From: a virus
Lineage: Duplodnaviria; Caudoviricetes
Reading direction: 5' to 3' (one strand)
Length of the DNA: 64,000 bases
Virus record (IMG/VR): IMGVR_UViG_3300027886_000005
Span: 2,249-66,248 of that record
Position numbers and translations under genes: made by a program. Below the pieces are notes generated by a model. It searched no databases. It saw only the letters and a program-made list of their open reading frames with translations, and was not told where the DNA came from. Every line of letters starts with the position of its first letter. Position 1 is the first letter of the stretch. Below are positions 10,425-53,230 of this stretch, piece after piece.

Positions 10425-11266
10425 GGCGCCACCCCCAGGGCGACGAGGCGCGCGTACGCGGCCCGGACCTCGGCGGAGGGCGGCCGCGGCAGGGTGCGGG
10501 CGGCGAACTTGTGGCGGGAGCGGACCTCGGCGTCGAACGACTTGGGCGGCACGCCTGGAGGGCACAGGCCGTCAGCGACGCTATCCCGATGGCGCAGGCA
10601 TCGACCCTGCAGCGCCCAAAGATCCACATCTGAGGCGGCTCTGTAGTCATGGAGTAGGATGCCTTTTGGGGCCACTCTGGCCCGCCAGACCTCGGCGCAG
10701 ATGACCGCGGCCGCGGCCCCGAGCGCAGGGTCGAGGGGGCACAGCGCGAGCCCGAGGTCGGCGAGGATCGCGGGCTCGTCGAGCCGGAAGTGCCACGGTC
10801 GCAGGGTCACGTTCGTCGCGGCGCACAGGTCCGGCAACACCGACCGGCGCACCTCGGCACGCTGCTCGTCGGTGTTCAGGGCCTGCGACTGCCCGCTGGG
10901 GTGCGGCACCACGATCACGTCGGTCTGGTCGGCGACGCGGCGCCACGTGCAGCGCTGGCCCGCGCAGCCGAACGCGTCGCCGACGCGACCGAAGCCCAGC
11001 GCCACGATCGTCGTGGCCCGTGCCAGCAGGCCGGCGGCCCGTTGCTCGGCGATGGCTGGCAGCCATGGTGCGGCGTCCCGGACCCCGGTGGGCGTCGGGA
11101 AGACGTTCTCGAACTGCACGTGGTCGAGCAGCGCCGCGCGGTCGACGAGGCCGAGGACCTTGGCCAGGCGCGAGCCGCTGGCGCAGTCGAATGGGCGGAA
11201 GCCCGGCGGCGCCCCGGCGGGCGGGGATTCGCCGACGAACAGGATGGTGGGGCGGACGTCAGCCAC
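10421..11266 (-). CDS. Uracil-DNA glycosylase-like protein
   Basis: ILFVGESP, SGSRLAKVLG, FENV, IVALG, VPHPSG. Confidence 0.75.
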   Translation of the reverse strand: MADVRPTILFVGESPPAGAPPGFRPFDCASGSRLAKVLGLVDRAALLDHVQFENVFPTPTGVRDAAPWLPAIAEQRAAGLLARATTIVALGFGRVGDAFGCAGQRCTWRRVADQTDVIVVPHPSGQSQALNTDEQRAEVRRSVLPDLCAATNVTLRPWHFRLDEPAILADLGLALCPLDPALGAAAAVICAEVWRARVAPKGILLHDYRAASDVDLWALQGRCLRHRDSVADGLCPPGVPPKSFDAEVRSRHKFAARTLPRPPSAEVRAAYARLVALGVAP

Positions 11267-11855
11267 GGCGAGACGACTCCTTGATGCCGCGGGCCAGTCC
11301 CTCGAGCCCCTGCTCCGTGCGCGACAGGACGTCGACAAGTCGGCCGATGATGCTCCCGGGTGTCGGGGTGACAGCCGACCGCAGCGACAGGGCGGCGACC
11401 TCCAGCCGCCGCTCCGTCAGCCGCACACGCGACTCGAGCTCGGCGATGCGCCGGTCGATCTCGTCGAGGCGCTCGGTGGTCGTGGGCGGGATGAGTGCGC
11501 CGGGGATGTGGCCCGTGGTGGCGACGGTAACGTCGTCGACCTGCAGGTCCTGGGGCAGGAGCGCGTCGCGGTCGCGGCGGAGCGCGGAGACGGCCTTGAC
11601 GATCTCCCGGCGGCCGGTGCCTGGGTTCAGGCGAGCGCCCGCGGCCATGGCGCTGTCATCTGTGAACCTGTCGAGGTTGTCGAGCGCATCCATGAGGGCC
11701 TCCGCTCGGTTGTTACGCTGGGTGATGGCGGCGACCAGTTCGTGCCTCAACTGCCCGATGCAGTCGGCCGCCTCCTTCAGGTCGGAGGAGAGAACCGGTC
11801 GGTCGTGTTGGGTGTACGCGCGCAGTCGCGCGACGATGTCGGGCTGGTCTTTCAT
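11259..11855 (-). CDS. Hypothetical coiled-coil protein
   Basis: ORF behind TGC-TAAGGT-7nt-ATG. Confidence 0.6.
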   Translation of the reverse strand: MKDQPDIVARLRAYTQHDRPVLSSDLKEAADCIGQLRHELVAAITQRNNRAEALMDALDNLDRFTDDSAMAAGARLNPGTGRREIVKAVSALRRDRDALLPQDLQVDDVTVATTGHIPGALIPPTTTERLDEIDRRIAELESRVRLTERRLEVAALSLRSAVTPTPGSIIGRLVDVLSRTEQGLEGLARGIKESSRRG

Positions 11856-11963
11856 CCCGGACACCTTAGCACGCGACAAGGTAGCGTGTCGCTGACACGT
11901 CTCCACCCCACCCAACCACCCACCCACGAAGGCCGGACGATTTCTCTTGACGACCGGCCACCT

Positions 11964-12067
11964 CTTCAGGCACCCTGTGGCGTCCCGCAGGGCCCCGGAC
12001 GTAGCCTGCGAAGTCCGGAAGCAGGCCCGGTGCGCGGGACAGCCAGCCACAGGGTGCTTACCTGAAG
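11964..12067 (+). ncRNA. Structured element copy 1 (84-bp core 11972-12055); candidate leader RNA, sRNA or cruciform
   Basis: Nested stems cttcagg/cctgaag, ccctgtggc/gccacaggg, gtcccgc/gcgggac, gggcc/ggccc, ccggac/gtccgg; identical inverted copy at 48524-48607. Confidence 0.65.
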
Positions 12068-12078
12068 GAGGCCGGGCG

Positions 12079-12318
12079 ATGTCGAGACGGATCGACCACG
12101 ACAAGGTCAGGGCCGAAGCAGACCTGAAGCCCAAGCGCACCGTCGTGCGGGACTCCAAACGGGACGCCGTCGTCATCTCCGCGCGGTCCCGCCCGAGCGT
12201 CGACGAGATGGTCGCGGACGTCGCCCGCGCCCGCGCCCGCGAGGCGACGTCGGCTGCGGCTTCGACCGGGCGAAGCGTCCTCGACGACCTCGACGAGGAC
12301 GAGGGCGCGACATGCTAG
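12079..12318 (+). CDS. Hypothetical protein
   Basis: GGAGG Shine-Dalgarno before ATG 12079. Confidence 0.6.
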   Translation: MSRRIDHDKVRAEADLKPKRTVVRDSKRDAVVISARSRPSVDEMVADVARARAREATSAAASTGRSVLDDLDEDEGATC

Positions 12319-12327: not shown

Positions 12328-12564
12328 ATGCACAACCTTGAGGCGGTGAAGCGGTCATTGGCCGCGTGGACGGACGACGACCTGGACGCGCTGCGCAGAC
12401 ATCGCAGGTCCCTCGGGTTCCGGGCCTTTGCGTGCATGCATGAGGACCTGTGCGTCTTCCTATCAGGCGCTGGGTGGAACCCGGCGGCTGGCCCCGTCGG
12501 CCTGGCTGAGTTCCTGAGCGACGACGTCGTCGCCACCATCCCAGGCGTGGACCTCTTCGACTGA
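12328..12564 (+). CDS. Hypothetical protein
   Basis: TGC-TAGGAT-6nt-ATG. Confidence 0.6.
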   Translation: MHNLEAVKRSLAAWTDDDLDALRRHRRSLGFRAFACMHEDLCVFLSGAGWNPAAGPVGLAEFLSDDVVATIPGVDLFD

Positions 12565-12577: not shown

Positions 12578-15550
12578 ATGCCAAACGACACCGAGGCGCC
12601 CTCCGCGGCGCAGTGGCCAGACCTGTCCTCGTGGCCAGACGACGACGCGCCGCCCGTTGAGTGGGCCCGCTTCTACCGCGACCGCTGCGGGTGGATCGTC
12701 GTCCCCACCGCCGGACCGATGGACGTCCTCTCGTGGGCCCGCTCGCTGGCCCAGGACGCCGCGGCCGCGTACGCCGATGACCACGGCGGACCGCCCGACG
12801 AGGAGACCGCCGTCGCGCTGTGGGACGCTGCCCGCGAGGAGGCCGACGACCTGCTCGGCCGCCCCGTCGGGTACATCTACAAGGCGTGGATGGCCAAGGT
12901 GGCCGTCGCCGCCGACGTCACCGACGCGATGCTCCGCGAGGCGTGGGAGCCCCTCGAGCACAGCCGCGGCCCGCGCAACGAGGCCGACCGCCGCGGCGTC
13001 GCCGTCCTCCCGAACCGCTCCGCTCGGGGCCTGCCGGTGGTGTTGGTCGACGTCGACCCACGCTCCGGCGGCGACGTGGACGGGCCGTGGGGCATGCAGT
13101 TATCTGGCCCGAAGGCCAGCACCCCAGGCGATGGCGTACACACGCTCATGCTCGCCACCGGCAAGGAAGTCGCGGGCTGCGACCTCGGCCCCGGCGTCGA
13201 CGTCGTCGCGGCCGGCGGCACCGCGATCCCGCTGCCGAGCGGATCCGCCACGCCGGGGCGCCGGTGGCTCCGCATGGACCCGCCCGTGGTCGCTCCCGAG
13301 CAGCTGCGCAAGAGGGGACGCAAGAGGGCCCCGCCCCGCATCCGGGAGGGCGCCAGGGGCACTGAGGCCGAGCGCCAGCCCGGCGACGACTGGGGCGACG
13401 ACGAGGGCCAGGGCGCGCAGGTCGTGTCATCCCCCGTCGGCGACGGCGAGCGGAACCGGGCCGCCGGCATTCTCGTCGGCATGCTCGCCAGGCCGCGCAG
13501 CCTCCCCGGTGACTTCGTCCGCGCCTGCCTCGAGCTGCTCGCGGAGGAGATGGCTGGGCGCGACGCGCCGTCAACGGAGATGCGTGAGGAGATGGCCCGG
13601 TGGCAGGTCCTCCTGACCCGCGGCCCGCGCGACGAGGCATTCGCCGCCGAGGTCATGGAGACTTGGCTCCGCGTCCGCGACACCAGCCGCAAGCGGATGC
13701 GGACCCCGCCGGCCAAGTTCGCCGCCTCGGTGTGGCGCGTCTGCGACCGCCGCGAGGAGGGCCGGGCCGGCGAGGAGGACCGCGGCGTCGGCCCGCCGCT
13801 CGGCGCCTGGCCGCCGGACGTCCCGGGCAGGCCGGAGCCGGTGCCGCCGTCAGCATCCACGACAGCCACTGAGGCGCAGCAGGCCGGACCTGGAGACGCC
13901 ACGACTGCTGACCCGGTGCCGTTCCCCCCGCCGCCGCCCGCGGTCGCCCAGGCCGCCGTGGAGGCGTCCAGGGTCGAGACTCCCCGGTGGCGCGGCGGCG
14001 TCGACCCCCGGCTCTTCGCCCCGTCCCTCGCCGAGGACTACACGCGCGACGACCTGCAGCGCGACCTCGAGCGCGAGCCGATCCGGATCTGCCGCGTCAT
14101 GCCGGCCATGGACTTCGCCACCGGCCAGCACTCGACGTCGCCCGACCTCCTCACCCGACCTGTCGAGTTCGGCTGGGGCGAGCACATGGCCGCGGCGAAG
14201 CGCGGGCTCTCCGCGGGCGACTTCGTTGCCGTCGGGGCCAGCAGCGCCGGCGCGGGGAAGACCACCTACCTCGCCTGGCTGCTGAACGGCCTCGCCCTCC
14301 AGACCGCGATGCGGCTCCTCCGCGCCAAGGGCTTCGAGGACCGACCCCTCGTCCTCCCGATCTGGGCCAGCGAGATGCCGAAGCGGAACGAGCTGTACGG
14401 CCGCCTCGTGACCGCCTACCTCGGCTTCCACCGGGCGGTGCTCGACGACGGCCCGATGGCCGAGGAGGCCCCTGGCGTCCTCGCGGCCGCCTCCGCGGGC
14501 CGCATGGCCCCCGCCGAGTACGTCGCCAAGGCCCGGGCCATGGAGGACTTCTACGGCAACGACGAGCGGTGCCCCCTGGCCGTCGCGCGCGCGCACGTGA
14601 TCCGCCGGATCAACCCGTCGCGGCTGCCCCGACACTCGCGCAGCCTCGGCGTCACCGTCCACCACCGGTCCGGCCCCGACCTCGTCGAGCACCTCGCCGA
14701 CGCCGTCGACCTCTTCCGCGAGGACCTGGCGGCTCGCGCCGGCGTCCCCACCGACAAGGTCCTGCCGGTCGTCGTCGTCGACCCGGTGCAGCGCTTCGCC
14801 GGCCCCGGGGGGCAGAGCGAGAAGGGGGCCATCGACGCGATCCTCGGCGCGCTGAACGACGTGCTGTGCCGCGAGCTCGGGTGCGTCGTCATGGCCACGT
14901 CCGACACGACCAAGGGCGGCGCCAGGACGGGGCTCGACTCGTTCCTGTCCGCCGACGCCCCGGCGCTCATGGCCGACGTGCTGTCGGGCTCCCAGGGCAT
15001 CGTGCACCACGCGAGCGACGTCGTCGTCGTGCACCCGGAGGCCCCGGCGCACGGCGCCCCGCCGCCGCGGGTCCGGGACGGCGGGCGGGAGCGCGAGATC
15101 GGGCCCGGGTGCGTCCGCCTCTGGACCCGGCTCCTGCGCTCCCGCGGCGGGGGCGAGTCGCCGCTCCTGTTCCCGTACGAGTGGGACCGCGCCCTGGGCC
15201 GGCTGCGCGAGCTCGACCCCGAGCCGCTGCGCCCCCCGCCGGAGCGGGACGACGACGCCAGGCGTGGCGGCTCCTCCCGCCACGCTGGCCACGCCGGCCA
15301 GGGCGGCCCCCCGCGACTCGACCCCGCCGCCGACTACCGGCTGCACAAGGCCGGCGCCCGGATGCGGGACGGGTCGCACGTCGAGGACCTCGGCCTCGCC
15401 TTCACGGACCTCGCCCGCGAGGCGATCGGGATCGACGGGCGCCCGGACCCGCACCCCGGCAAGCGCTGGTGGCCGGACGTGGTCGTCTCCGGGCGCGCGG
15501 CCGCGCACGTCCTGGCGGCGATGACCTGCCGGCACGAGCGGGTGACGTAG
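12578..15550 (+). CDS. Bifunctional primase-polymerase fused to a DnaB/RecA-fold helicase
   Basis: Prim-Pol motifs GWIVVP, LVDVDPRSGG, STPGDGVH, GVDV; Walker A GAGKTT; Walker B VVVVDP. Confidence 0.85.
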   Translation: MPNDTEAPSAAQWPDLSSWPDDDAPPVEWARFYRDRCGWIVVPTAGPMDVLSWARSLAQDAAAAYADDHGGPPDEETAVALWDAAREEADDLLGRPVGYIYKAWMAKVAVAADVTDAMLREAWEPLEHSRGPRNEADRRGVAVLPNRSARGLPVVLVDVDPRSGGDVDGPWGMQLSGPKASTPGDGVHTLMLATGKEVAGCDLGPGVDVVAAGGTAIPLPSGSATPGRRWLRMDPPVVAPEQLRKRGRKRAPPRIREGARGTEAERQPGDDWGDDEGQGAQVVSSPVGDGERNRAAGILVGMLARPRSLPGDFVRACLELLAEEMAGRDAPSTEMREEMARWQVLLTRGPRDEAFAAEVMETWLRVRDTSRKRMRTPPAKFAASVWRVCDRREEGRAGEEDRGVGPPLGAWPPDVPGRPEPVPPSASTTATEAQQAGPGDATTADPVPFPPPPPAVAQAAVEASRVETPRWRGGVDPRLFAPSLAEDYTRDDLQRDLEREPIRICRVMPAMDFATGQHSTSPDLLTRPVEFGWGEHMAAAKRGLSAGDFVAVGASSAGAGKTTYLAWLLNGLALQTAMRLLRAKGFEDRPLVLPIWASEMPKRNELYGRLVTAYLGFHRAVLDDGPMAEEAPGVLAAASAGRMAPAEYVAKARAMEDFYGNDERCPLAVARAHVIRRINPSRLPRHSRSLGVTVHHRSGPDLVEHLADAVDLFREDLAARAGVPTDKVLPVVVVDPVQRFAGPGGQSEKGAIDAILGALNDVLCRELGCVVMATSDTTKGGARTGLDSFLSADAPALMADVLSGSQGIVHHASDVVVVHPEAPAHGAPPPRVRDGGREREIGPGCVRLWTRLLRSRGGGESPLLFPYEWDRALGRLRELDPEPLRPPPERDDDARRGGSSRHAGHAGQGGPPRLDPAADYRLHKAGARMRDGSHVEDLGLAFTDLAREAIGIDGRPDPHPGKRWWPDVVVSGRAAAHVLAAMTCRHERVT

Positions 15551-17962: not shown

Positions 17963-18569
17963 GAAGAACCTCCACCGACGTAAGGCCGTTGCGCTTCCGG
18001 CTGCCCACGTCGAGGTGTCAACCGACGCGATCACTATCGTCGTTCCTGAGGTCGTCGGCAAGAACTCCAGCCACACAGGCGGCCGCGGCGGGCTGCGCTT
18101 CACGTCGTCCCACACGAAGGCGTTCCGGGCGTCGGTAGAGTCGGGCATCATCACGCACAGGACGCTTGCTATGGCAGGACCCAACGTGTTGGAGGCCATC
18201 GGCAACTCGCAGGCGATGCGTGGCACCTGGCGCCTCGAGGTCGTCGGCGTGTGGCCGACCAAGCGCGACGTGGTCGCGGGCAGGCCGGCCGACTTCCTCA
18301 TGCCCTGCGGCGACGCCGACGCCGCCATCCCGCAGGCACTCGACGCGCTACAGTACGCTGGGGTCCTCGACGACGACGCGCGGGTCGTCGAGGTCAGGGC
18401 CTGGAACCTGTACCGTAAGGATGTGCGGGCGACGGTGATGCGGCTGGTGCGGGTGAGCCTTGACCTCGTCGAGCGCGACACAGCCATCGCCCACCTGCTC
18501 CCGCTCGTGCCACAATCCCCCGAGCCGCCGGCCAAGCCCGCGCGCAAGAGGAAGGCCAAGCCGACATGA
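17955..18569 (+). CDS. rusA: RusA-like Holliday junction resolvase
   Basis: GDADAAIPQALDALQYAGVLDDDARVVE resembles the RusA DxD..K..D...DD motif. Confidence 0.65.
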   Translation: MAKKNLHRRKAVALPAAHVEVSTDAITIVVPEVVGKNSSHTGGRGGLRFTSSHTKAFRASVESGIITHRTLAMAGPNVLEAIGNSQAMRGTWRLEVVGVWPTKRDVVAGRPADFLMPCGDADAAIPQALDALQYAGVLDDDARVVEVRAWNLYRKDVRATVMRLVRVSLDLVERDTAIAHLLPLVPQSPEPPAKPARKRKAKPT

Positions 18570-19069
18570 GGTTCAACATCCCCCCACCGCTCGGCCTGTC
18601 GTCCCAACGCGTCGAGGTCCTCGCCGTCCCGCCGCACCCGGCAGCGGCGTTTGGCGGCCTCGAGGGTACGGGCCGATCCTGCGCCTCGTTCCACGAGCGG
18701 TCCGCCGTCCTCGCCGACGTGGTCACCGTCGCCTCGGCCCGCTGGATCGCCTGGGCCGTCCGCGAGGCGCTCGAGGGCCGCACCCCGCGGACCCGCGCGT
18801 TCCTCTCGCCGGTCCTGTCCGGCGGCCCCGGGTTCGATCTGGGCCGCGGGCCCGTCGCCGGCCCCATGGTGTTCGGCGGCGAGACCTGCAGGCCGGGCTG
18901 GCCCGACGGGTGGATGTGCGACCACCCGTCGCACGACGTCCTGCCACCCCACGAGGCGCTGCTCCCGGCCCGCCGCGTGGTCGTGGAGGACGCGGGCGAC
19001 GTGCTGCTCGACGACTTCGACGACGGCCTGTCGTGGCCCCTGGTCGTCGTGGAGGGGGCGAGCGCGTGA
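18566..19069 (+). CDS. Hypothetical protein
   Basis: ATGA coupling. Confidence 0.55.
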   Translation: MRFNIPPPLGLSSQRVEVLAVPPHPAAAFGGLEGTGRSCASFHERSAVLADVVTVASARWIAWAVREALEGRTPRTRAFLSPVLSGGPGFDLGRGPVAGPMVFGGETCRPGWPDGWMCDHPSHDVLPPHEALLPARRVVVEDAGDVLLDDFDDGLSWPLVVVEGASA

Positions 19070-19818
19070 CCTGGGAGATGCCAGCCGGCCGTGCCGGTCA
19101 CTTCGACATGTGCACCTCGCCGTGGCTCATCTTCACCGAGGACAGTCGCGAACTGCTGCCGCGCCTGCCGGACGGGTTCGCCGACCACGTGATCACCGAC
19201 CCGCCGTACGACAAGAAGACGCACGAGGGGGCGAGAACTGGGGCTAGCGCTGACAAGGACCTCGGCATCGACTTCGATGCCATTGACGGGGATGTGTCAT
19301 TTGTGGGCGACTGCGTGCGACTGGCGCGCCGCTGGGTGTTGGCGACATGTGCAATGGAGCAAGTGGGAGCGTATCGAGATGCCTCTGGAGAATCGTGGAT
19401 CCGAGGTGGCTTCTGGCACAAGCCAGACGCCATGCCTCAGGTGAGCGGAGATAGGCCGTCGACCCCTGGTGAGTGCATGGCGATCATGCATAGGACTGGG
19501 CGGAAACGCTGGAATGGCGGCGGCTTCCCAGCCTTCTGGTCTGTCCCCATTGAGCGATCCGACCGGGTCCACCCGACGCAGAAGCCACTGGCCCTGATAC
19601 TCCGCCTCGTCGAGCAGTTCACCGACCCCGGCGACGTCGTCCTCGACCCATTCTGCGGGAGCGGCACGACGGGCGTCGCATGTTTGCGTCTCGGCCGGCG
19701 GTTCGTCGGCGTCGAGCGTGACCCGAGGTACGCCGCGCTGGCCCACGAGCGGCTACTGGCCGAGTCGTCGGGCCTCACCCTGCGCGCCGCCCGAGCCGGC
19801 CAGATCACGCTCCTGTAG
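19066..19818 (+). CDS. DNA methyltransferase (N6/N4, beta class; DPPY)
   Basis: ITDPPY, HPTQKP, VLDPFCGSGTTG. Confidence 0.9.
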   Translation: MTWEMPAGRAGHFDMCTSPWLIFTEDSRELLPRLPDGFADHVITDPPYDKKTHEGARTGASADKDLGIDFDAIDGDVSFVGDCVRLARRWVLATCAMEQVGAYRDASGESWIRGGFWHKPDAMPQVSGDRPSTPGECMAIMHRTGRKRWNGGGFPAFWSVPIERSDRVHPTQKPLALILRLVEQFTDPGDVVLDPFCGSGTTGVACLRLGRRFVGVERDPRYAALAHERLLAESSGLTLRAARAGQITLL

Positions 19819-20568
19819 GTGGCCGCCCGCCCCCGCCGCGCCCACGCTCCCGCCGTGCCCCTCGTGCGAGACGAAGACGGACCGCTCCAGCCGGGCCTCC
19901 CGGGCGTCCTGCCAGAGGAGGCGCCGCTCCCGTCCGAAGTCGTGCTTGACGGCGGGGTCCTCGACCGGCGCCGCCGCGAGGCCCTCGCCGCGATCCGGGC
20001 GACGCTACTCGAAAGGCCTGAGGACTTCACCCCAGAGGAATGGCGCGTCGTCGTCGCCATGTTGGCGCCACCGACCGCTCACCTCGGCCGCCGGCCCGGC
20101 ACCGCCGCCGCGCGCTACGGGGTCGTCCAGACGGCCCGCGACTGCTTCCCCCACCTGGGCTCCACCCAGGCCGTCGCCCGCTTCCGCGAGGCCCAGGCGC
20201 GCCCGCACGTGGCCGCCTTCGTCGCCGACATGCGGGCGCTCGAGCTCGTCGACGTGCTCGACCAGCGCGGCCCGGTGCGCGAGCGCCTGTGGCAACTCAT
20301 CCGGCTGGCCGACGCCGTCGACCCGCTCGTCGCCGTGGACCCTGAGGCGGGCTCAAACCACGTCCGCGCCGCGGCCGTCGCCGTCCAGGCGATCAAGGTG
20401 CTGGTCGACATGGACGCCCTGCACGTGACCCCAACGGAAGTCGCCTCGCTGACCACGACCGCGTCGGCCAAGGACGAGGACGTCGCGGGCCTGTCTGACA
20501 AGGTCGCGCAGGTGGCCCGCGTCGCCGAGGATCTGCGGGCGAGGCGGCGGGAACGGGCGGGCGTATAA
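19819..20568 (+). CDS. Probable terminase small subunit
   Basis: Helical protein upstream of terL; call is by position only. Confidence 0.45.
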   Translation: MAARPRRAHAPAVPLVRDEDGPLQPGLPGVLPEEAPLPSEVVLDGGVLDRRRREALAAIRATLLERPEDFTPEEWRVVVAMLAPPTAHLGRRPGTAAARYGVVQTARDCFPHLGSTQAVARFREAQARPHVAAFVADMRALELVDVLDQRGPVRERLWQLIRLADAVDPLVAVDPEAGSNHVRAAAVAVQAIKVLVDMDALHVTPTEVASLTTTASAKDEDVAGLSDKVAQVARVAEDLRARRRERAGV

Positions 20569-20584
20569 TGCTATCATGCCCGTA

Positions 20585-20833
20585 ATGGCTACCACCCGCG
20601 AAAAACTCATCGAGTCCGGCCTGTTCAGGGAGACGACCTCGCGCGACCTCGTCGCCGATTTCCCCGAGAACGAAAATGATAACATCCGCATGACGCTCGA
20701 GTTCGATTCATTCGGTGACCTCGTCCACCTGAGTGCGTGCATCGTCAGCAAGCCACTCGCAGAGATGGTCGCCCAGAACCGTCGCGCGCTCGGCCTTCCT
20801 CCGCAGCACAGCGTCGAGGCAGGCCACCTCTAA
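20585..20833 (+). CDS. Inserted hypothetical gene between the putative terS and terL
   Basis: TGC-TATCAT-7nt-ATG. Confidence 0.6.
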   Translation: MATTREKLIESGLFRETTSRDLVADFPENENDNIRMTLEFDSFGDLVHLSACIVSKPLAEMVAQNRRALGLPPQHSVEAGHL

Positions 20834-20836
20834 CAC

Positions 20837-22711
20837 GTGCTCGGCCTCTACGACCTTCTCGACGCCGGCGTCGCCGAGCCCGACCTGACGGCCTGGCTCG
20901 GTGGCCGCGCCGTGCCCAGGCTGCCGTCGCTGTCGCCGAAGGAGCGGCGGGCCATCTGCGAGGCGTGGTGGTTCTGGGCGCGTCCCGGGCAGCGCTGGGA
21001 GCCCGGCCCCGAGTTCATCACCGACTTCGAGTGCGGCCGCGGGTTCGGCAAGGACTACCTCGTCAGCCAGACCATATGCCAGCAGGCCGCGCTCGACCCG
21101 GAGCGCTGGGGCGGCTACGCGATCGTCGTCGGCCCCGACCCCACACAAGTGAAGCGCGATTGCCTGTTCGGCCCGTCCGGCATCTTCCCCGCGGCCGAGC
21201 GGGCGGCGAGGTCCGGCAACGGCCCGGCCATCGTCGACCGGAACCTCGTCGACCGGTGGCTCCGCTTCGAGTCGCCGCGGGGCGGCGGCTCGGGCGGCCT
21301 CACCGTGTATTGGGCCGCGTCCTCCGACCCGAAGTCCGTCCACGGCGCGAACGTCGGCCTCGTGTGGTGGGACGAGTTCGGGGTCTCGTACCACCGCCGC
21401 TACGACGAGCAGGGCAACAACGCGTGGCGGGCACTGCTGCCGGCGGTGCGCCTCGGCCTCGACCCGAAGATCATCATCACGCAGACGCCGAGCCGGGCGC
21501 CGGAGGTGCGGGCGCTGCAGGCCGACGCCGAGCGGCCCGAGTGCCCGCGGTGCCGGGCCGAGGCGCTCGCCCGCGGGCCGTACGTCGGGGCGCCGCTGCA
21601 GGAGCCGTGGAGGCTTCTGCGGTCGCCGCAGCGACGACTGCACCCAGCGCTCGACACCCGCACCACCGAACCGGTGCGCGAGTGCCCGGCCTGCGGCTCG
21701 CGCGTCGTGGCCCGCGTGCGGACCGTGTTCGGGGCGACGACCGACAACCCGTCGCTGGCGGCCCGGGCCCGAGACGACGCGGCACGCGAGCTCGAGGGCG
21801 GGACCGCGGCGGCCCGGCTCCGGTTCGCCCCGCGCGGGGAGGCCGACGCCGGCGGCGAGGGGGCGCTCATCCGCCACGAGCACGTGCTCGAGGTGACGGC
21901 CGGCGCCCCGCCAGCACGGCCCGGCGGCCCCGTCCCCGACCTGCACATGCGCGCTCTGGACGAGGTTGGGGCCGACGAGGTCGTGGTGTTCGTGGACCCC
22001 GCCGTCACCGCCTCGGAATCCTCCGACGAGACGGGCCTCGTCGCCGCATGCGTGCGCCGGACCACCCACGGCGGCCGCGAGGTCCGCCAGGCGGTGGGCC
22101 TCACCGACGCGAGCGTGCGGCCCGACGAGGTCGCCTCGGGCCCTCCGAGCGCCGTGTGGGCCCCGCGGGCGTACTGGCAGGCGGTGCTCTGGGGCGCGAG
22201 GCGGATCGTCGTCGAGGTCAACCAGGGCGGTGAGGAGGTGCTGTCCGCGGTGCGCGATCTGTGCGACCGGCCGCCGAGCGAGGCGGAGTGCCTGGCGCGG
22301 CTGCGGGGGGAGCACCCAGGGGCCAGCGACGCGCAGCTCGGCGCGCTGACCCGGCGCCTCGCCACCAGCGCCCGCGGCATCGCGGTCGAGGCCGTCCGGC
22401 GGCGGGCGCCCAAGCCGGCCCGCGCGGAGTGGTACGGCCGCACCGCGAGCCTCGGCCAGCAGGCCGTCCTCTGCGTCGAGTGGCAGGACGGGGCGAGGCA
22501 CTGGCAGACGTGCGTCGGCCAGGCGACCGGATACGAGCCGCCGCGGGCCGACGCGCCGCCGTCCGCCCGCCGCGACCGCAAGGACCGTTGGGACGCCTTG
22601 TGCGGCACGGCCCAGGTCCTCCTCGGCGTGCGCGAGACGGCCCGCGGCGAGGTTGAGGACGCGCAAGGACAAGGGTGGATGGGGCAGGTCAGCAAGTCGT
22701 CGCTGCGCTGA
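20837..22711 (+). CDS. terL: Terminase large subunit
   Basis: GRGFGK Walker A, WWDEFG Walker B, ITQTP, FVDPA..SDETG, VEVNQGGE, DRWDA. Confidence 0.9.
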   Translation: MLGLYDLLDAGVAEPDLTAWLGGRAVPRLPSLSPKERRAICEAWWFWARPGQRWEPGPEFITDFECGRGFGKDYLVSQTICQQAALDPERWGGYAIVVGPDPTQVKRDCLFGPSGIFPAAERAARSGNGPAIVDRNLVDRWLRFESPRGGGSGGLTVYWAASSDPKSVHGANVGLVWWDEFGVSYHRRYDEQGNNAWRALLPAVRLGLDPKIIITQTPSRAPEVRALQADAERPECPRCRAEALARGPYVGAPLQEPWRLLRSPQRRLHPALDTRTTEPVRECPACGSRVVARVRTVFGATTDNPSLAARARDDAARELEGGTAAARLRFAPRGEADAGGEGALIRHEHVLEVTAGAPPARPGGPVPDLHMRALDEVGADEVVVFVDPAVTASESSDETGLVAACVRRTTHGGREVRQAVGLTDASVRPDEVASGPPSAVWAPRAYWQAVLWGARRIVVEVNQGGEEVLSAVRDLCDRPPSEAECLARLRGEHPGASDAQLGALTRRLATSARGIAVEAVRRRAPKPARAEWYGRTASLGQQAVLCVEWQDGARHWQTCVGQATGYEPPRADAPPSARRDRKDRWDALCGTAQVLLGVRETARGEVEDAQGQGWMGQVSKSSLR

Positions 22712-23981: not shown

Positions 23982-24022
23982 GAGACATGATAGCTTGACT
24001 CTCGTGCGGCGTCCTGTAGTGT
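23982..24022 (+). promoter_or_regulatory. Operator plus sigma70-type promoter of the phage sigma gene
   Basis: GAGACA-TGATAGCT-TGACTC; TTGACT-16nt-TAGTGT-7nt-ATG. Confidence 0.65.
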
Positions 24023-24029
24023 GCATCAC

Positions 24030-25235
24030 ATGCACGCCAGATTGCCCGCCGCCATGACGCACCACCCGATCTTCTCCGCCGAGGAGGAGCACGCCGCGTT
24101 CACCTCGATCCACGAGGCCCGCGTCGCCGCCTGGCTCGCCGTCCTCTCCGACCGCAACCTCGCCCCACGCTGCCTTCCACCGACCACTCCGGGGCTCGCC
24201 GAGCACGTGGTCTGGGACGCCGCCCGCGAGGCCGCGGTGATGCGGCCCGTCCGCGCCACCCTCGCCGCCGCCGCGTGGTACGCCGAGCCGCTGGCCCGCC
24301 GCCTCGCCGCCGACGACATGTCCTGCGAGGGGCTCTTAGCCGCCCGCGCCGTCGTCGGCCGCCTCGCCGCCCGCCGCTCCACGTCCCCCGCCTGGGTCCG
24401 CCAGGTCGGCGCCGCGATGGCCCGGCTCGCCGCCGCCGTCGACCACGTCGAGCGCCACAACCTGCGCCTCGTCGTCCAGCAGGCCTCCCGCCATTCCCAC
24501 CGCTGCAGCGCCCTCACGCTCCACGACCTCGTCGGCTACGGCGCCCTGGGCCTGCGGATGGCCGTCCTGCGCTTCGACGTCTCCCGCGGCCTGCGCTTCT
24601 CGACCATGGCCACGCACTGGATCAGCCACCCGATCCGCCGCGCGATCCAGGACCGCCGGTCGACGATCCGCGTCCCGGTGCACATGCAGGAGCGCATGGC
24701 CAAGGTCGCCCAGGCCCGGCGCGTGCTGCTGAACGCCACCGGCGAGGAGCCGACCGTCGAGCGGCTGGCGGAGGCCACGGGCGAGCGCGACGTCGCCGGG
24801 GTCCTCGAGGTCCTGCACATGGGCGGCGAGGCGGTGTCGATCGACGCCCCGACGTGGCGGGACGACGGCTCCACGGAGGCCATCCGCGACTCGCTCGCGG
24901 ACGTCGGAGCCCCGACGCAGGACGAGGTCGTCCACGACCGGGAGCGACGGGGCCTCGCCGCGCGCCTGCTCGACGCGCTCGACGACCGCGAGCGGTTCAT
25001 CGTCGAGGCGCGGTGGGGGATGCTGGGCGGAGAGGAGTCCTCATACAAGGACCTCGCCGACGTCCTGGGCGTCACGCGCCAGCGCGTGCAGCAGTTGCAG
25101 GAGGCGGCCATGCGCCGGCTCCGGGCTGCGGCAGACCGCATTGACGATCCCTCTCCGCGGAGGCCCGCGCAGAACGTCGCCCCCGCACACCGCCCGACGT
25201 TCTCGCCGGGCGTGCAGGTGCAGCTGGCGCTGTGA
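24030..25235 (+). CDS. RNA polymerase sigma-70 family factor (RpoD/RpoS-like regions 2-4)
   Basis: NLRLVV, DLVGYGALGL, FDVSRGLRFSTMATHWI, IRVPVHM, VSIDAP, LGVTRQRVQQLQEAAMRRLR. Confidence 0.92.
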   Translation: MHARLPAAMTHHPIFSAEEEHAAFTSIHEARVAAWLAVLSDRNLAPRCLPPTTPGLAEHVVWDAAREAAVMRPVRATLAAAAWYAEPLARRLAADDMSCEGLLAARAVVGRLAARRSTSPAWVRQVGAAMARLAAAVDHVERHNLRLVVQQASRHSHRCSALTLHDLVGYGALGLRMAVLRFDVSRGLRFSTMATHWISHPIRRAIQDRRSTIRVPVHMQERMAKVAQARRVLLNATGEEPTVERLAEATGERDVAGVLEVLHMGGEAVSIDAPTWRDDGSTEAIRDSLADVGAPTQDEVVHDRERRGLAARLLDALDDRERFIVEARWGMLGGEESSYKDLADVLGVTRQRVQQLQEAAMRRLRAAADRIDDPSPRRPAQNVAPAHRPTFSPGVQVQLAL

Positions 25236-27374
25236 CTACCACGCGACCGCGTCGGCCTGCGACCGGAACGACTCCCACGACTCACTGCGCTCCGCCGGAG
25301 AGTCGCTGATCGTGACGGCGACCGCATGGCGGGTGGCGGCCGGTGGCACATGGACAACCGGCGTGGCGGCGGGGGGGTCGACAACCCGCTCGCCGAGGTC
25401 CGGCCGCGCCTCCCCGCCGGCGATCCGCCGCAGCGCCTCGACGGCCCGCGCGTAGATCTTCCGTACGGATTCCTTGGCCAACGTCCTCCCGCTGCACGCG
25501 AGCCCGGACTCGCCGATCGACAGGAAGCTCTCTCCACCGGCGCCCTGCGTGCCCTCGGCGATCGAGTCGAGGCCGTGGTGCCGGCGGACGACCTCGGCCA
25601 TCTCGGGCCCGCGCAGGTCGCCGTCGCCCGAGGCGCGCAGGGCCGCCAGCGCGGACAGGGCCCGGCCCCACCGCGAGGCAGCCTCCTCCTCGTCGGCCTC
25701 GCGCTCGAAGTCGTCGGGCGCCGCGAGCACGGCCGCGGCCCGCTCGACCCCGCCGGCGCCGTCCGTGCCCTGCGAGTCCTCGTCGTCGTCCCCGCCGCTA
25801 CCGACCCCGACGAACACCGGGGCGCCGTGCCGGAGGGCCGCCAGCAGGCCCGACCCGCTGGCGCCCTTGATCTCGAGCACCTTCGCCACCCACGCGGCGA
25901 GGAACTCGCGGGCCTGCTCGGGCAAGCGGTCGACTGCGCCCGAGGCGGCCACCTTGGACCGGGAGCGCCACGGCGGGCGCGGCCGGCTGCCGAGCGCGGA
26001 CCGCATGAGCCGGCGGCGCGGTGACGGGCCTGGCGGCGGGAGGGCGGCGGCCATGGCCTCGCGGGCGATCTCGTCGACAGGGCGCCCGGCCAGCAGCGCC
26101 CGGCGCGTGCGGCGGGTCGGGCGGCTGCCGGGGACGACCTCGACGGACTCGGCGAGGAAGAGGAGGTCGGCGAGGACCAGCGCGTGCCCCGGCGTCGTCG
26201 ACTCCGCCAGCGACTCGATCGCCGCCAGCAGCGCCCGGGCGGCGTCGTGGCCGTGCAGGTGCAGCCGGTCCTGCACGGCCCGGCGCAGGTCCAGCACCCA
26301 CGGGGGCACGCCGACGAGGTCGCGCCGGGCCCACGCCTCGCCGCTGCCCTGTCGGGCCCACGCGGCGGCGTACGTCGTGAAGCGGGCGTGCCGGGCGTCA
26401 TAGTCGAGCCCCCCGCGGTCGAGGCCGATCATCGCGCCCTGGGTCAGGTCGGCCCGGGTGACGCCGTCGCGGGGCGAGTGGTAGCGCAGCTGCACCGCGA
26501 TCCCGGTGCGGCCGTTCGTGCGCACGTTCCGCTGGCGCGCGGCCATGAGCGGGCCCACGGCGGCGAGGACCTGCGGCGGGACGCCGGGCCGGGGCGAGCG
26601 GACGTCGGCGGCCGCTACGGCGGCGTGGAGGCGGTGGGCGCCCTCGTCGGCCCACGCGCCGGGGTCGTCGACGGGCCTGGGCGGCGCCGACGCCACGGCG
26701 GCGAGCAGGGCCCGCAGGTCGCGGTCGGCGGCGACGTCGTACCCGCTGGCGGCGCCGCGTGGCGTCTCGAGCGCCGCGGCCATGGTGGCGAGGTCGACGC
26801 TCCCGGCGGGGTAGAGCGCGAGGGTGCCGCAGCGCTCGACGGCCCCGGCGGCGCGGCGGACCTTGGACGGCCGGCAGGCGACGGCGCGCGGGCTCCAGGC
26901 GCGACGGGCGGCCGACACGACCTCGACCGCGTGGACGACGCCTGCATCGCGGAGGACGGGCGAGGAGACGACCACGGCGGCGCGGGCTGGCCGGGCCCGT
27001 CGCCTGCCGGCGGCGGGGCAGGGCCGAGGCTCCTCGCCCGGTCGCATCGGCCGGCGGCACCAGCGGCAGGCGGGCGGCGGGTCGAGCCAGTCGGCCACCG
27101 CGAGCCGGAGCTCGCGGACGCCGTCGCGCCCGGTGGGGTCGCCGGGCAGGGACCGGGCCCGGAGCGCGGCCGCGAGCCGCTCGGGGACGAGCCGCTCGGC
27201 CAGCGCCCAGAGCCGCCGCCGGAGCGGAAGGATCGCCGCGGCCGCCGCCTGGCCGTCGCGTTTGGCCTCCTCGGTGCTCACCCGGGCGTACGAGTCGACG
27301 ACCATCGCGGCGACCGGGGTGTCGAGCTCGTGCGCCCCATGCCGCTGGGGGCCCCTGATCTGGGTCTTACTCAC
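25236..27374 (-). CDS. Large divergent sigma-70-like protein
   Basis: Region 2 DLTQGAMIGLDRGGLDYDARHARFTTYAAAWARQ, VGVPPWV; region 4 VVRRHHGL...SFLSIG...ESVRKIYARAVEALR. Confidence 0.75.
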   Translation of the reverse strand: MSKTQIRGPQRHGAHELDTPVAAMVVDSYARVSTEEAKRDGQAAAAAILPLRRRLWALAERLVPERLAAALRARSLPGDPTGRDGVRELRLAVADWLDPPPACRWCRRPMRPGEEPRPCPAAGRRRARPARAAVVVSSPVLRDAGVVHAVEVVSAARRAWSPRAVACRPSKVRRAAGAVERCGTLALYPAGSVDLATMAAALETPRGAASGYDVAADRDLRALLAAVASAPPRPVDDPGAWADEGAHRLHAAVAAADVRSPRPGVPPQVLAAVGPLMAARQRNVRTNGRTGIAVQLRYHSPRDGVTRADLTQGAMIGLDRGGLDYDARHARFTTYAAAWARQGSGEAWARRDLVGVPPWVLDLRRAVQDRLHLHGHDAARALLAAIESLAESTTPGHALVLADLLFLAESVEVVPGSRPTRRTRRALLAGRPVDEIAREAMAAALPPPGPSPRRRLMRSALGSRPRPPWRSRSKVAASGAVDRLPEQAREFLAAWVAKVLEIKGASGSGLLAALRHGAPVFVGVGSGGDDDEDSQGTDGAGGVERAAAVLAAPDDFEREADEEEAASRWGRALSALAALRASGDGDLRGPEMAEVVRRHHGLDSIAEGTQGAGGESFLSIGESGLACSGRTLAKESVRKIYARAVEALRRIAGGEARPDLGERVVDPPAATPVVHVPPAATRHAVAVTISDSPAERSESWESFRSQADAVAW

Positions 27375-27457
27375 GAGGGGACATGGTAGCACGTCCGCGC
27401 GCGGCCCGAACGCCGTCCACCGGCCGGCCGACCCGCCGATAACTAAACGGCGTCAAG

Positions 27458-27499
27458 GAGACATGATAGCTTGTCTCCCGCCTGTAGGTCGTGTAGCTT
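27458..27499 (+). promoter_or_regulatory. Perfect dyad operator plus promoter
   Basis: GAGACA-TGATAGCT-TGTCTC; TTGTCT-17nt-TAGCTT-7nt-ATG 27507. Confidence 0.75.
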
Positions 27500-27506
27500 G
27501 GAGTCC

Positions 27507-47612: not shown

Positions 47613-48437
47613 CTACTCGCCCAGCGCCTCGCGGATCTCCTGGGCGCTTCGCTGGAGGAGCGCATCCTCGAATGCCTTGGCCCGGTGCTGCGCCTCGTTC
47701 CTCGCCCCCAGCGCCTCGGAGGTCTCCCGGACGAGGTCGTCGCACCGCGCGTGGACCTTGGCAAGGTCCTCTCGTTGCTTGGCGATGATCGCGTCCTTGT
47801 CGGCCATCATCTTCGTCATGTCGGCGATGAGTCGCTCCTGGTTGGCGACCTCGACGTTGAAGTCGTGGACGCGGGCGCCGACGTGGTCGCGCATCTCGTC
47901 GTCGGTCCCGGCCGCGCCGGCGAGGCCGTTGGCCCACGCGCGCCAGGCGAGCAGGTCGTTCGCGGAGGCGAGCAGGGACTCGCGTTCGTTGTCGATGTAG
48001 CGGTCGCCAGCCGAGGCGGAGGCCTCCGCCGCGAGCAGTTCTCGCTTGACGTTGTCGTAGGCCACCGCGAAGGCCGACTCGCTGTCCAGGAGACGTGAGG
48101 CGGCGCCCCAGAGCGCCTCGGCCTCCCGGCGCATGGCGTCGCCGCGGATGAGCAGTGAGGCGGCCACGTCGGCGAGGCGACGGGCGACGGCGGTCGTGGC
48201 CCGCAGGTGGGCCTCGCGGCCGTTCGTTACGTCGTCGAGCAAGACGTCAAGGATGACATCGGCGTCGGACTGGTCGTGTCCGGTGACCGGCCAGAGACGC
48301 GCTGCCTCGCCGTGGTCGACGGCGAGCGCGACGCCGTCAGCCAGAGCGAGCAGGTCGGCGTCGTTGGGGTGGGACTCGACGCGCTCGCGGAGGAGGTCGT
48401 CGAGGGCGGCGAGGATGAGTGGGGTGCGGTCGATCAT
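47613..48437 (-). CDS. Inserted coiled-coil hypothetical protein (antisense)
   Basis: Behind a perfect dyad/-10 box at 48442-48461. Confidence 0.65.
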   Translation of the reverse strand: MIDRTPLILAALDDLLRERVESHPNDADLLALADGVALAVDHGEAARLWPVTGHDQSDADVILDVLLDDVTNGREAHLRATTAVARRLADVAASLLIRGDAMRREAEALWGAASRLLDSESAFAVAYDNVKRELLAAEASASAGDRYIDNERESLLASANDLLAWRAWANGLAGAAGTDDEMRDHVGARVHDFNVEVANQERLIADMTKMMADKDAIIAKQREDLAKVHARCDDLVRETSEALGARNEAQHRAKAFEDALLQRSAQEIREALGE

Positions 48438-48441
48438 GGCT

Positions 48442-48461
48442 GAGACAGCTTAGCATGTCTC
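48442..48461 (-). promoter_or_regulatory. Dyad operator containing the extended -10 box
   Basis: GAGACA-TGCTAAGC-TGTCTC. Confidence 0.7.
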
Positions 48462-48511
48462 TCGCCCCTGCCGACCCTGCCCGCTCGTCCTGACAGGCCC
48501 GCGCGCCCGTC

Positions 48512-48615
48512 CTTCTGATAGATACCCTGTGGCTGGCTGTCCCGCGCACCGGGCCTGCTTCCGGACTTCGCAGGCTACGTCCGGGGCCCTGCGGGACGCC
48601 ACAGGGTATCAGAAG
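48512..48615 (-). ncRNA. Structured element copy 2 (core 48524-48607), inverted relative to copy 1
   Basis: 84 bp identical to the reverse complement of 11972-12055; own outer stem; TTGACA-18nt-TACCCT upstream on the minus strand. Confidence 0.65.
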
Positions 48616-48704
48616 GAGAGGGCGCCTGTCAAGTGGCCGCGTTAGGGCTTGTGGTTACGGATGGTTGGGAGATGGCACGGCGGGCCGGCAATTAGCCTCG
48701 CCCC

Positions 48705-49313
48705 GTGGCCACCGTCCTCCGGCGCCAGTCCCAGCCCCTGATGTCGATCGGGGACCTCGTCTTCGACTGCGAGGTGTCCGTCCAGCGCGGCGGCCAGCGC
48801 GAGATCAGTCGGCGGCGGCTGGCGAGCGGCGCCCGCGTGTCCGAGCACTCCCGCCGCCTCCCGCGCACCTGGCAGGTCGAGGGCGCCGTGTCCGCCCTGC
48901 CACCGGCGCAGAACGTCGGGCGGCCGGGAGCGAGCGCCACGCTCGGCGGCCTGAACGCCCTGCCGGTCGCCGCGTCCGCCTTCTCCGCCGCAGCCATCGC
49001 CAGCAGGGTCAAGGACTTCGAGACGCGGCTGGACCGCCTCCTCGACGACGACGTGTTCGGTCCAGTTGAACTCGTCAGCAAGGTCGTCGGCCGGCCGCTC
49101 GTGGTCATCACGGAGTGGCAGGCGACCACGACCGGGGACGACGGGATGGTGGGGCGCTACCGCCTCACGCTCGAGGAGGTCCAGCGGGCGGACCTGACGA
49201 TCACGGACGGGACGCCGGAGTCGCTGGCGCTGGTCGGGTCGGGCGGCGCGCCGCAGCCGGGCGGGGGCGGGCCCAGCCAGGCGACCCCGGTGACGCTCGA
49301 GGTCGTGCCGTAG
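48705..49313 (+). CDS. Tail tube initiator/baseplate hub-proximal protein
   Basis: FDCEVSVQR..ISRRRLASGARVSEH..LPRTWQVEG. Confidence 0.7.
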   Translation: MATVLRRQSQPLMSIGDLVFDCEVSVQRGGQREISRRRLASGARVSEHSRRLPRTWQVEGAVSALPPAQNVGRPGASATLGGLNALPVAASAFSAAAIASRVKDFETRLDRLLDDDVFGPVELVSKVVGRPLVVITEWQATTTGDDGMVGRYRLTLEEVQRADLTITDGTPESLALVGSGGAPQPGGGGPSQATPVTLEVVP

Positions 49314-51853: not shown

Positions 51854-51857
51854 CGTC

Positions 51858-51877
51858 GAGACATGCTAGGATGTCTC
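51858..51877 (+). promoter_or_regulatory. Dyad operator containing the extended -10 box
   Basis: GAGACA-TGCTAGGA-TGTCTC, ATG at 51880. Confidence 0.7.
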
Positions 51878-51879
51878 CC

Positions 51880-52428
51880 ATGCAGAGACACGTGATCGAG
51901 CTGGTGGCCGCGCGCGCGGCCGAACTCCTGGGCGAGTGGATCGGCCTGAGCCCATTCGCCAAGAGCGACAACGGCGACGAGAGCAGCGTCGGCGGCTTGG
52001 CCATGGTCCTCGGGGCCATGCTCGCCGCGAAGGCTCCGCCGCCCCCACCGGATGCCGTCGAGCGGATGCGCGACCACATCCTGGCGGACATCGCTGGCAG
52101 GGCAAAAAACGGACAGGTCATGCGGATGACGTACGACGTGGACTACGGCCCAGGACGAGAATTGTCCAGGTTGGCGGAGTCGTGCGAGATCAAGTCGTCC
52201 TGGCCCATCAAGTCGCACCTCACGATCTATCTCCACCATAGCAAGACGTCAATCTACAACAAACGCAACTACGGTGCCGAGGGCCTGACGCACTACCTCA
52301 TCGACGGGCGCGGGTGGATCGTCAGCCCCAGCACCATCGACGCCCGGGTGCTGCCGATCGTCCTCGCCGCCATCGACCGCGGCGATGTGAGCCCAGACGT
52401 GGCGCGGCTGGAGCCGTTCAAGACCTGA
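51880..52428 (+). CDS. Inserted hypothetical gene
   Basis: Leaderless start behind the dyad. Confidence 0.65.
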   Translation: MQRHVIELVAARAAELLGEWIGLSPFAKSDNGDESSVGGLAMVLGAMLAAKAPPPPPDAVERMRDHILADIAGRAKNGQVMRMTYDVDYGPGRELSRLAESCEIKSSWPIKSHLTIYLHHSKTSIYNKRNYGAEGLTHYLIDGRGWIVSPSTIDARVLPIVLAAIDRGDVSPDVARLEPFKT

Positions 52429-53204: not shown

Positions 53205-53208
53205 CCCC

Positions 53209-53228: not shown

Positions 53229-53230
53229 CT

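Follow-up and report, generated by a model that had tools for sequence, protein, structure and literature searches.

A conserved, covarying palindrome with a predicted promoter, carried in two inverted copies by tailed phages, resembles single-strand folded promoters in architecture

Several described systems join a promoter to a hairpin. In the leading regions of conjugative plasmids, host RNA polymerase reads the Frpo/ssi elements, hairpins in which the -35 box, the -10 box and the UP element each stand opposite a complementary stretch (Masai and Arai 1997, cited after PMC11541004); genes of early and anti-defence type lie behind Frpo, which can prime DNA synthesis as well (PMC11541004). At the single-strand origins (sso) of rolling-circle plasmids and of integrative and conjugative elements, and at the minus-strand origin of filamentous phages, host RNA polymerase likewise reads a folded strand (PMC4595007) and makes a short primer; these origins are orientation-specific, 130-200 nt long and intergenic (PMC4595007). 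The PeSLs of the T4-type phages RB49 and phi1 combine an early promoter with a stem-loop and number dozens per genome (Arbiol et al. 2010, PMC2839356), and the early promoters of phage N4 are required in hairpin form, extruded from supercoiled DNA and stabilized by SSB (PMC4496689). Here we analyze a 64,000-nucleotide stretch of a Caudoviricetes genome (hereafter the window; IMG/VR record IMGVR_UViG_3300027886_000005), in which a predicted promoter, P1, occupies the 5' arm of a long imperfect palindrome. This element occurs at two sites, in inverted orientation, and it is real, conserved and strongly covarying among related phages. We read it, with a probability of roughly 0.4, as a folded promoter of the Frpo/sso kind that acts at the DNA level, one for each strand.

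The source record, of which the window is a part, is 66,248 bp long with 71% G+C and holds two copies of the element only. As the first-pass annotation of the window had noted, positions 11972-12055 equal the reverse complement of 48524-48607 over 84 of 84 nucleotides, with identity ending at both edges. Around this 84-nt core, which lies on the plus strand at site 1, a weaker similarity extends over 141 nt (11929-12069 versus 48510-48650, 84%). A C/A-rich tract, G-rich on the opposite strand, lies upstream of both P1 copies (11899-11930, and 48650-48680 on the minus strand) and is alike between the sites; a comparable tract is seen in one relative (L124). The shared module of ~165 nt folds into one long imperfect hairpin, with z-scores of -5.4 to -6.4. 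Taken as 104-nt stretches, the two copies reach -63.1 and -60.3 kcal/mol (z = -5.7 and -6.4), values equaled by none of 200 shuffles, and the two strands of these stretches fold about equally well. A 164-nt stretch at site 1 gives z = -6.4.

Relatives were collected from a large protein collection as 47 homologues of the primase encoded downstream of site 1, many of them on contigs of ~65 kb, and their neighborhoods were fetched. The second site was located in relatives using the tail protein Dit and a 274-aa protein as anchors, and a covariance model built from six members was searched against the window and 28 related loci. Full copies lie upstream of the primase operon in L122, L137, L124, L156, L141 and L155, and two further copies are cut by the contig end (L121, 1-58; L154, 1-103). 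Two independent contigs thus end inside the element, a break that is typical at inverted repeats and that might also reflect two orientations of the segment lying between the copies. One relative, L123, lacks the element at site 1 and keeps the replication genes. Copies at site 2 are present in L157, L159, L160 and L158, always pointing into a reverse-oriented, highly variable cassette. The covariance model recovered every one of these and added four more distant members (L151, L144/L145, L150 and L138), from phages with primases only 35-39% identical. Altogether there are 16 distinct full elements, in phages with primases 35-76% identical, and each of the 16 occupies one of two positions, ahead of the primase operon or in the gap that separates the reverse cassette from Dit.

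Neither in the window nor in the 28 related loci did the covariance model find a copy outside these two syntenic sites, and distant primase relatives (L139-L148, L152, L161 and L162), whose upstream DNA is often short, gave no significant match. A pattern scan of 185,579 GTDB species genomes returned 0 matches, and blastn found none in 72,556 plasmids or 50,697 phages. In IMG/VR, an exact 19-mer had 0 matches, and searches with the primase and the 274-aa protein found no close relatives. Two looser IMG/VR patterns were discarded: the 118 matches to an apical-stem pattern were all chance or unrelated enterobacterial prophage sequence, and the 12 matches to a promoter pattern were all chance. 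An Rfam search, which the first-pass annotation had proposed, was run and showed no known family: there were 0 matches across the window at gathering thresholds, and locally over the element the best match had E = 1.7, far under the family threshold, with none at E <1.

P1 is predicted from boxes that the members share in a gap-free alignment of their promoter arms. At site 1 the -35 box TTGACG (11947-11952) is followed by an 18-nt spacer (11953-11970), which forms the 5' outer arm of the hairpin, and by the -10 box CACCCT (11971-11976), all on the plus strand. The boxes described at first pass are borne out at both sites, TTGACG and TTGACA each standing 18 nt ahead of CACCCT and TACCCT, respectively, with the -10 box inside the stem. 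TTGAC of the -35 box is present in 16/16 members; the spacer is 18 nt in 15 of them and 17 nt once. ACCCT of the -10 box and the R and T that follow it are likewise found in 16/16, whereas the first base of this box is C in 11/16, partly offset by an extended TG (T at -15 in 9/16, G at -14 in 14/16). An A/T-rich run before the -35 box is clear, against a background of 70% GC, in L122, L144, L151, L150 and L138 and weak or absent in the others. This set of -35 box, spacer and -10 box is kept though the surrounding sequence varies, as a sigma-70-type motif, and P1 is probably a strong primary-sigma promoter with an extended -10 element. Because TACCCT with GTG or ATG 6 nt later recurs at many leaderless virion genes of the window phage, we take it as a -10 box and predict that P1 starts ~7 nt past it, near 11982-11983. 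The combination TTGACR-N16-19-YAnnnT occurs three times in the window, two of these being the P1 sites; the third (TTGACR-N19-TAnnnT at 15608, minus strand) is without a hairpin. Among the promoter types of this phage, a host-like -35 box is seen in P1 only.

The inner hairpin at site 1 consists of three core stems, GTCCCGC (11982-11988) with GCGGGAC (12034-12040), GGGCC (11990-11994) with GGCCC (12024-12028) and CCGGAC (11995-12000) with GTCCGG (12013-12018), the last closing a 12-nt apical loop (12001-12012). In the 3' arm (12041-12060, plus strand), the bulges AGCCA (12041-12045) and CTTA (12057-12060) flank the complement of the -10 region (12046-12056). It had been noted that the outer stems differ between the copies and that both nevertheless pair, and this holds; in each copy the 3' side carries a 4-nt bulge. 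The hairpin exceeds its first description, since it takes in the promoter spacer and, for copy 2, also the -35 box. At site 1 CCGGCC (11954-11959) pairs with GGCCGG (12070-12075), and minimum free energy (MFE) folds give a robust hairpin over 11954-12075, possibly extending to 11943-12087. At site 2 the hairpin with P1 spans 48491-48632 on the minus strand (-35 box TTGACA, 48632-48627; -10 box TACCCT, 48608-48603; core, 48607-48524), and the -35 region at 48630-48623 pairs with 48498-48491. In this copy 29 of 30 promoter positions are paired, compared with a maximum of 26 in 100 shuffles of the 3' arm.

The same fold is seen throughout the family. All 16 elements form one long hairpin (RNA parameters, -81 to -110 kcal/mol; z = -3.2 to -8.8) in which the -35 and -10 boxes lie opposite complements, the anatomy of a folded promoter. 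Pairing with the downstream arm includes 90% of alignment cells in the spacer, where 15 of 18 columns carry compensatory double changes, 97% in the -10 box and 78% in the -35 box, each of these boxes having double changes in 1/6 columns. The -35 anchor base is paired in the MFE fold of 14/16 members, and the box is wholly paired in, for example, L157, L159, L124 and copy 2 of the window. For 15/16 elements, shuffled 3' arms matched the observed number of paired promoter positions in <=5/100 trials. In a 14-member covariance-model alignment, 93.2% of cells are paired versus 72.8% after shuffling, and the covariation score is 0.516 versus 0.167, with 0/500 shuffles as high and slid controls at 0.06-0.08. 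Covariation in homologues, which the first-pass annotation had called for, is therefore found across the 16 members, with changes on both sides in 27/42 pairs of this alignment. Among the 16, the -10 region and its second copy stand 78-103 nt apart, and the inner part varies both in length (70-95 nt) and in sequence.

The two arms are not equivalent. In 16/16 members the arm opposite the promoter has 2-10 more unpaired bases between the box complements, so that the 17-18-nt spacing exists on the sense arm only and the reverse strand is left without a usable promoter. The reverse arm was also considered as a promoter for the phage's own sigma factors and rejected, its box spacing being ~20-28 nt and its -35-like box degenerate. 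Across members, G-T and A-C appositions show no clear strand bias, so nothing marks one strand as RNA, which fits a DNA palindrome better than an RNA made from one strand. Moreover, the spacer and the -35 box would be missing from any RNA that begins at P1; such an RNA therefore cannot explain their complementarity to the downstream arm. No conserved upstream -10 box could put the whole hairpin into RNA, a candidate being present in L122 only. There the start codon of the divergent gene lies ~22 nt before the -35 box, which leaves no space for a co-directional upstream promoter that would transcribe the 5' arm. Since L122 offers no room for such a promoter and no crossing transcript is expected at site 1, a fold at the DNA level is the simplest account of the outer half.

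Within a genome, the inner parts of the two copies are 100, 85, 80 and 70% identical (four genomes), compared with 62-75% for the promoter arms; paired figures for inner part and promoter arm are 100/62, 85/67 and 80/67%. That the inner parts are more alike than the promoter arms shows sequence exchange between the copies of one genome.

Both copies lie in divergent intergenic gaps, each pointing into one flanking transcription unit. At site 1 the divergent neighbor is a 198-aa gene (11259-11855, minus strand) with its own leaderless promoter at ~11856-11890, and no co-directional gene lies upstream of P1. On the other side, the GGAGG reported as a ribosome-binding site after copy 1 is indeed present at 12067-12071, within the 3' outer arm, and is followed by the ATG at 12079 of a 79-aa gene (12079-12318, plus strand). 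This gene heads a rightward operon that continues with a 78-aa gene (12328-12564) and a 990-aa primase-helicase (12578-15550, plus strand), whereas the leftward operon beside site 1 holds nuclease, exonuclease and DnaA_C-like genes. At site 2 P1 points into a 274-aa gene (48437-47613, minus strand) wedged between the tape measure gene (44795-47611; Pfam PhageMin_Tail, 8.9e-26; PHROG tape measure, 1.4e-50) and the divergent Dit-like tail protein gene (48705-49313, plus strand; Pfam Dit_like, 9.6e-08). The 274-aa protein has no family match, and 20 homologues were found. A second, leaderless promoter is predicted at 48435-48460 (minus strand), with the extended -10 element TGCTAAGCT at 48455-48447 and the ATG of the 274-aa gene at 48437-48435; in most relatives a leaderless promoter of the same type lies 40-70 nt past the hairpin. 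Because a separate leaderless promoter thus intervenes between hairpin and gene in most members, the arrangement suggests that P1 and its hairpin form an autonomous module, beyond being the promoter of the first gene.

Between tape measure and Dit lies a hypervariable site for gene cassettes, occupied in each relative by different, mostly reverse-oriented and unannotated genes (window, 47613-48437, minus strand; L157:4160-5394; L158:3821-5885; L159:4539-5694; L160:4415-6768). In L160 a gene with a Pfam match to Tad4, an anti-Thoeris family, adjoins the element.

On the reading as a folded promoter in DNA, each copy would be a self-contained module, an imperfect DNA palindrome of 120-150 nt with P1 inside its 5' arm and with a 3' arm that is complementary to the promoter arm except where 2-10 extra bases intervene. 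In the duplex state P1 would fire early, rightward into the replication operon at site 1 and leftward into the accessory cassette at site 2. The module may also act when folded, as selection appears to keep the promoter paired with its downstream complement. A strand could snap back when single-stranded, or it could be extruded by negative supercoiling between the divergent transcription units; the fold would then rebuild duplex -35 and -10 boxes at the right spacing on the sense arm, while the other arm would bear the extrahelical bases. Such a folded promoter might let host RNA polymerase start RNA, either as message or as primer, and two inverted copies would provide one such signal per DNA strand. 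The fold potential, its conservation, the covariation and the invariant promoter-like positions are observed, and from them we infer the activity and start site of P1, the formation of the fold in DNA and its use.

Several points weigh against this reading. Tailed phages inject double-stranded DNA and this one encodes its own primase-helicase, so it has no evident need of a single-strand promoter or primer that depends on RNA polymerase. A GC-rich, bulged palindrome extrudes from duplex DNA with unfavorable kinetics. The -35 box is unpaired in ~3/16 members, and at site 1 of the window its partner is coding sequence: the extension that pairs the box with the gene's first codons is not kept in L122. 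The structure itself guided the covariance-model alignment, and the family of 16 amounts to only ~8-9 independent lineages. In theory, template switching from arm to arm can also yield compensatory changes in long quasi-palindromes without selection. Finally, P1 was not called by the promoter scan, whose consensus is that of E. coli, whereas the -10 box of P1 is YACCCT.

The best-surviving alternative, which we consider unlikely, is a PeSL-like stem-loop in read-through RNA that would stop, mark or expose transcripts to RNase III. Such RNA would come from outside, for example as late transcripts from the tape measure gene that run antisense through the reverse cassette towards Dit; the promoter would overlap the stem-loop for compactness, and the repeat would double as a recombination point for shuffling accessory genes. 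PeSLs are strong sigma-70-like promoters with box-overlapping stem-loops that terminate transcription and shuffle genes (PMC2839356), and a promoter with an overlapping stem-loop is what we find here. In addition, both sites border hypervariable small-gene cassettes, the greater likeness of the inner parts than of the promoter arms shows exchange between the copies, and a late read-through transcript at site 2 would hold the whole hairpin. However, the element is neither co-directional nor terminating, nor is it present in many direct copies: in the divergent gaps there is no co-directional upstream gene to terminate, and at site 1 no transcript is expected to cross. The terminator scan found nothing at the hairpin, which is without a U-tract and without a G-U strand bias, and recombination between the inverted copies would invert 36 kb and excise no cassette. 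PeSL stems are also short, whereas here 120-150 nt pair a complete promoter with a dedicated complement and carry conserved one-sided bulges.

Less likely still is a leader or small RNA from P1, starting exactly at the base of the inner hairpin (11982-12040); this hairpin would shield the 5' end against RNase J/E or serve as the binding site of a regulator, and the single-stranded tail that follows it bears the ribosome-binding site in the window and L122. The helices downstream of the predicted start are indeed kept by compensation (helices 7-10, with double changes in 14/18 pairs), and the 12-nt apical loop is conserved in the window, L122, L160 and L141 while the stem around it changes. In L160, for example, CCGGAC/GUCCGG has become CCCCGC/GCGGGG through three double changes with all pairs kept, and GGGCC/GGCCC has become GGCGC/GCGCC, the loop remaining the same. 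The concerted evolution of the inner part within a genome is also what a genome-specific partner would call for. Yet the inner part is otherwise highly variable, Rfam offers no match, and the truncated RNA alone has z = -0.4, no better than shuffles. The first gene of most members is served by a leaderless promoter of its own and lacks a ribosome-binding site. A 5' stabilizing leader hairpin is therefore plausible for the inner half only, and the pairing and covariation of the spacer and -35 box are left unexplained.

The first-pass annotation had proposed, as one option, a noncoding RNA or leader riboregulator with a pseudoknot. The pseudoknot, an interleaved pairing of GCCUGC with GCAGGC, does not survive comparison, because the partner of GCCUGC reads GCAGGG in L122, GCAGCG in L160 and GCAGCC in L141, uncompensated, whereas the competing stem CCGGAC/GUCCGG is kept in L160; the interior of the element is a plain extended hairpin. 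The RNA reading itself falters on the position of the best-supported covariation, which lies in the spacer and the -35 box, outside any RNA started at P1. What stands of that annotation is a real, covarying structure, for which, of its three options, the promoter-embedded palindrome fits best.

An improbable third alternative is a pair of replication origins in an arrangement similar to oriL/oriR, palindromes within divergent gaps of which one adjoins the replication genes and the other is distant, and which P1 transcription would activate or prime. Site 1 immediately precedes the primase-helicase operon and adjoins the leftward nuclease, exonuclease and DnaA_C-like genes, and the positions of the two copies are conserved. 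Two origins far apart are present in Bacillus phage SPP1, and those of herpes simplex virus are palindromes that separate divergent genes. However, no iterons are present, the only candidate for an A/T-rich unwinding region is a short stretch ahead of the -35 box, there is no signal in GC skew, and L123 keeps its replication genes without the element at site 1.

We give little weight to a selfish or mobile palindromic promoter cassette, such as a miniature inverted-repeat transposable element (MITE) or a Correia-like element, or to a functionless palindrome kept by template switching. The long, terminally inverted structure, its outward-acting promoter, its duplication in the genome and the breaks of the L121 and L154 contigs within it would suit such an origin. 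The question of a MITE, raised at first pass, is answered by the distribution, which is that of two syntenic copies per genome instead of a spread: they occupy the same two sites in the same orientation across phages with primases 35-76% identical, and no copy was found in the species genomes, IMG/VR, or the phage and plasmid collections. Furthermore, the flanks join the pairing and form no target-site duplications.

Least probable is a duplex-DNA operator, in which a regulator of phage or host origin would bind the YACCCTRTGG box and its inverted copy, loop the DNA and silence P1, the hairpin being incidental; the box around -10 and its exact inverted copy are the only strongly conserved sequences and dyad sites occur at many other promoters of the window phage, but the box-to-box distance varies from 78 to 103 nt, and looping by a protein requires neither complementarity of the spacer nor a hairpin interior, both of which double changes preserve.

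The window phage is siphovirus-like, with tape measure, Dit-like and primase-helicase genes, and blastn and tblastn against cultured phages found no cultured relatives. Its host is probably actinobacterial, given the leaderless TANNNT promoters, the 71% G+C and two primase-bearing contigs in an Actinomycetes metagenome-assembled genome (MAG). These are the short contigs L161 and L162, with primase homologues 36-38% identical, and this bin is the sole taxonomic hint for the host. One primase match in the protein database is labeled as a Nannocystis MAG. Sigma-70-family proteins are encoded by the phage and its relatives, with Pfam Sigma70_r2/r4 matches in the relatives (window, 23994-25235, plus strand, and 25236-27452, minus strand; L121:11240-12481; L122:20827-22008; L154:11922-13142).

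Apart from P1, two promoter classes recur in the window. Class 1 is leaderless, with an extended -10 element CATGCTAnnnT and a start codon 6-9 nt later, often within a dyad (11856-11890 and 48447-48460 on the minus strand; 51838-51892, 53189-53243, 56310-56364, 27425-27500 and 59046-59121). Class 2 consists of TACCCT, CGCC-like bases and GTG or ATG 6 nt later, ahead of virion genes (2351, 28459, 30737, 36161, 40443, 42819, 44783, 60280 and 60429 on the plus strand; 2314 on the minus strand), and often stands back to back with a class 1 promoter on the opposite strand. Near both ends of the window lies a 300-nt direct repeat (992-1291 and 63593-63892, 90% identical). Its spacing of 62.6 kb is close to the 65-68 kb size of related contigs, and it is a candidate either for a terminal redundancy of mixed variants or for a paralogous gene pair. 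In L156 a 978-aa protein (18188-21124) has a LAGLIDADG match and counterparts of ~625 aa in relatives, which suggests an intein or a homing-endonuclease insertion.

We hold it doubtful that sigma-70-type folded promoters, one per strand, exist in a clade of tailed double-stranded DNA phages and become active, or change in activity, when the DNA is single-stranded or extruded. If they do, such phages would tie early gene expression or the priming of DNA synthesis to the physical state of their DNA, a coupling documented so far only for conjugative plasmids, rolling-circle replicons and filamentous phages. A phage promoter whose fold acts in DNA would sense single-strandedness or torsional stress, a layer of control that would have been overlooked in work on early phage expression, anti-defence timing and replication priming. 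Whatever its mechanism, the element is a compact and easily recognized marker, itself strongly conserved, of where two early transcription units begin in this clade of uncultured soil phages, and a defined experimental target of ~150 nt that can be cloned and comes with natural compensatory variants. It also illustrates that covariation alone is no proof of RNA, because here it reaches upstream of the promoter's own start.

Among known systems, the most distant comparison is with the attC sites of integrons, which have inverted boxes at the base, a variable paired interior and extrahelical bases on one arm that mark the strand, and which adjoin exchangeable cassettes. The likeness to the present element, with its boxes, variable paired interior, one-sided extra bases and neighboring cassettes, is a structural analogy only: neither an integron integrase nor core-site motifs are seen here, and attC sites are without a promoter. 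The N4 promoters share the tie between a phage early promoter and a hairpin form, but their hairpins have 5-7 bp and a 3-nt loop and are read by a single-subunit polymerase from the virion (PMC4496689), whereas the window phage shows no polymerase of that kind and has sigma-70-type boxes. PeSLs are closer, as they too combine a strong host-type early promoter with a stem-loop over the boxes, and are repeated beside variable ORFans, with recombination between their copies; they have A/T-rich upstream sequence, which is clear in several members of the present family. They differ in having short stems between or over single boxes, in co-directional arrays of direct repeats that terminate upstream transcripts, in contrast to a ~150-nt hairpin that pairs the entire promoter, in two inverted copies, in divergent gaps and without a terminator tail.

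The sso share with the element their folded-strand promoter anatomy, length range and intergenic position. Their replicons, however, pass obligatorily through circular single-stranded DNA, and the motifs RS-B and CS-6 were not identified here; the apical loop contains TAGC, a loose resemblance that we did not count as evidence. The Frpo/ssi elements are likewise long imperfect DNA hairpins in which the -35 and -10 boxes lie opposite their complements and serve a sigma-70-type polymerase; they also pair an A/T-rich upstream element, of which clear counterparts are seen here in some members, but they act on DNA that enters single-stranded. The element described here belongs to a tailed double-stranded DNA phage with a high-GC host and is present as two copies on opposite strands. 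As blastn against the plasmid and phage collections revealed no sequence homology to known Frpo, ssi or sso, the likeness is architectural. Homology aside, the element thus seems built like the single-strand folded promoters, in a tailed double-stranded DNA phage. The theme of a promoter plus a hairpin is already known, whereas the tailed-phage form, in which the whole promoter is paired, appears to be new.

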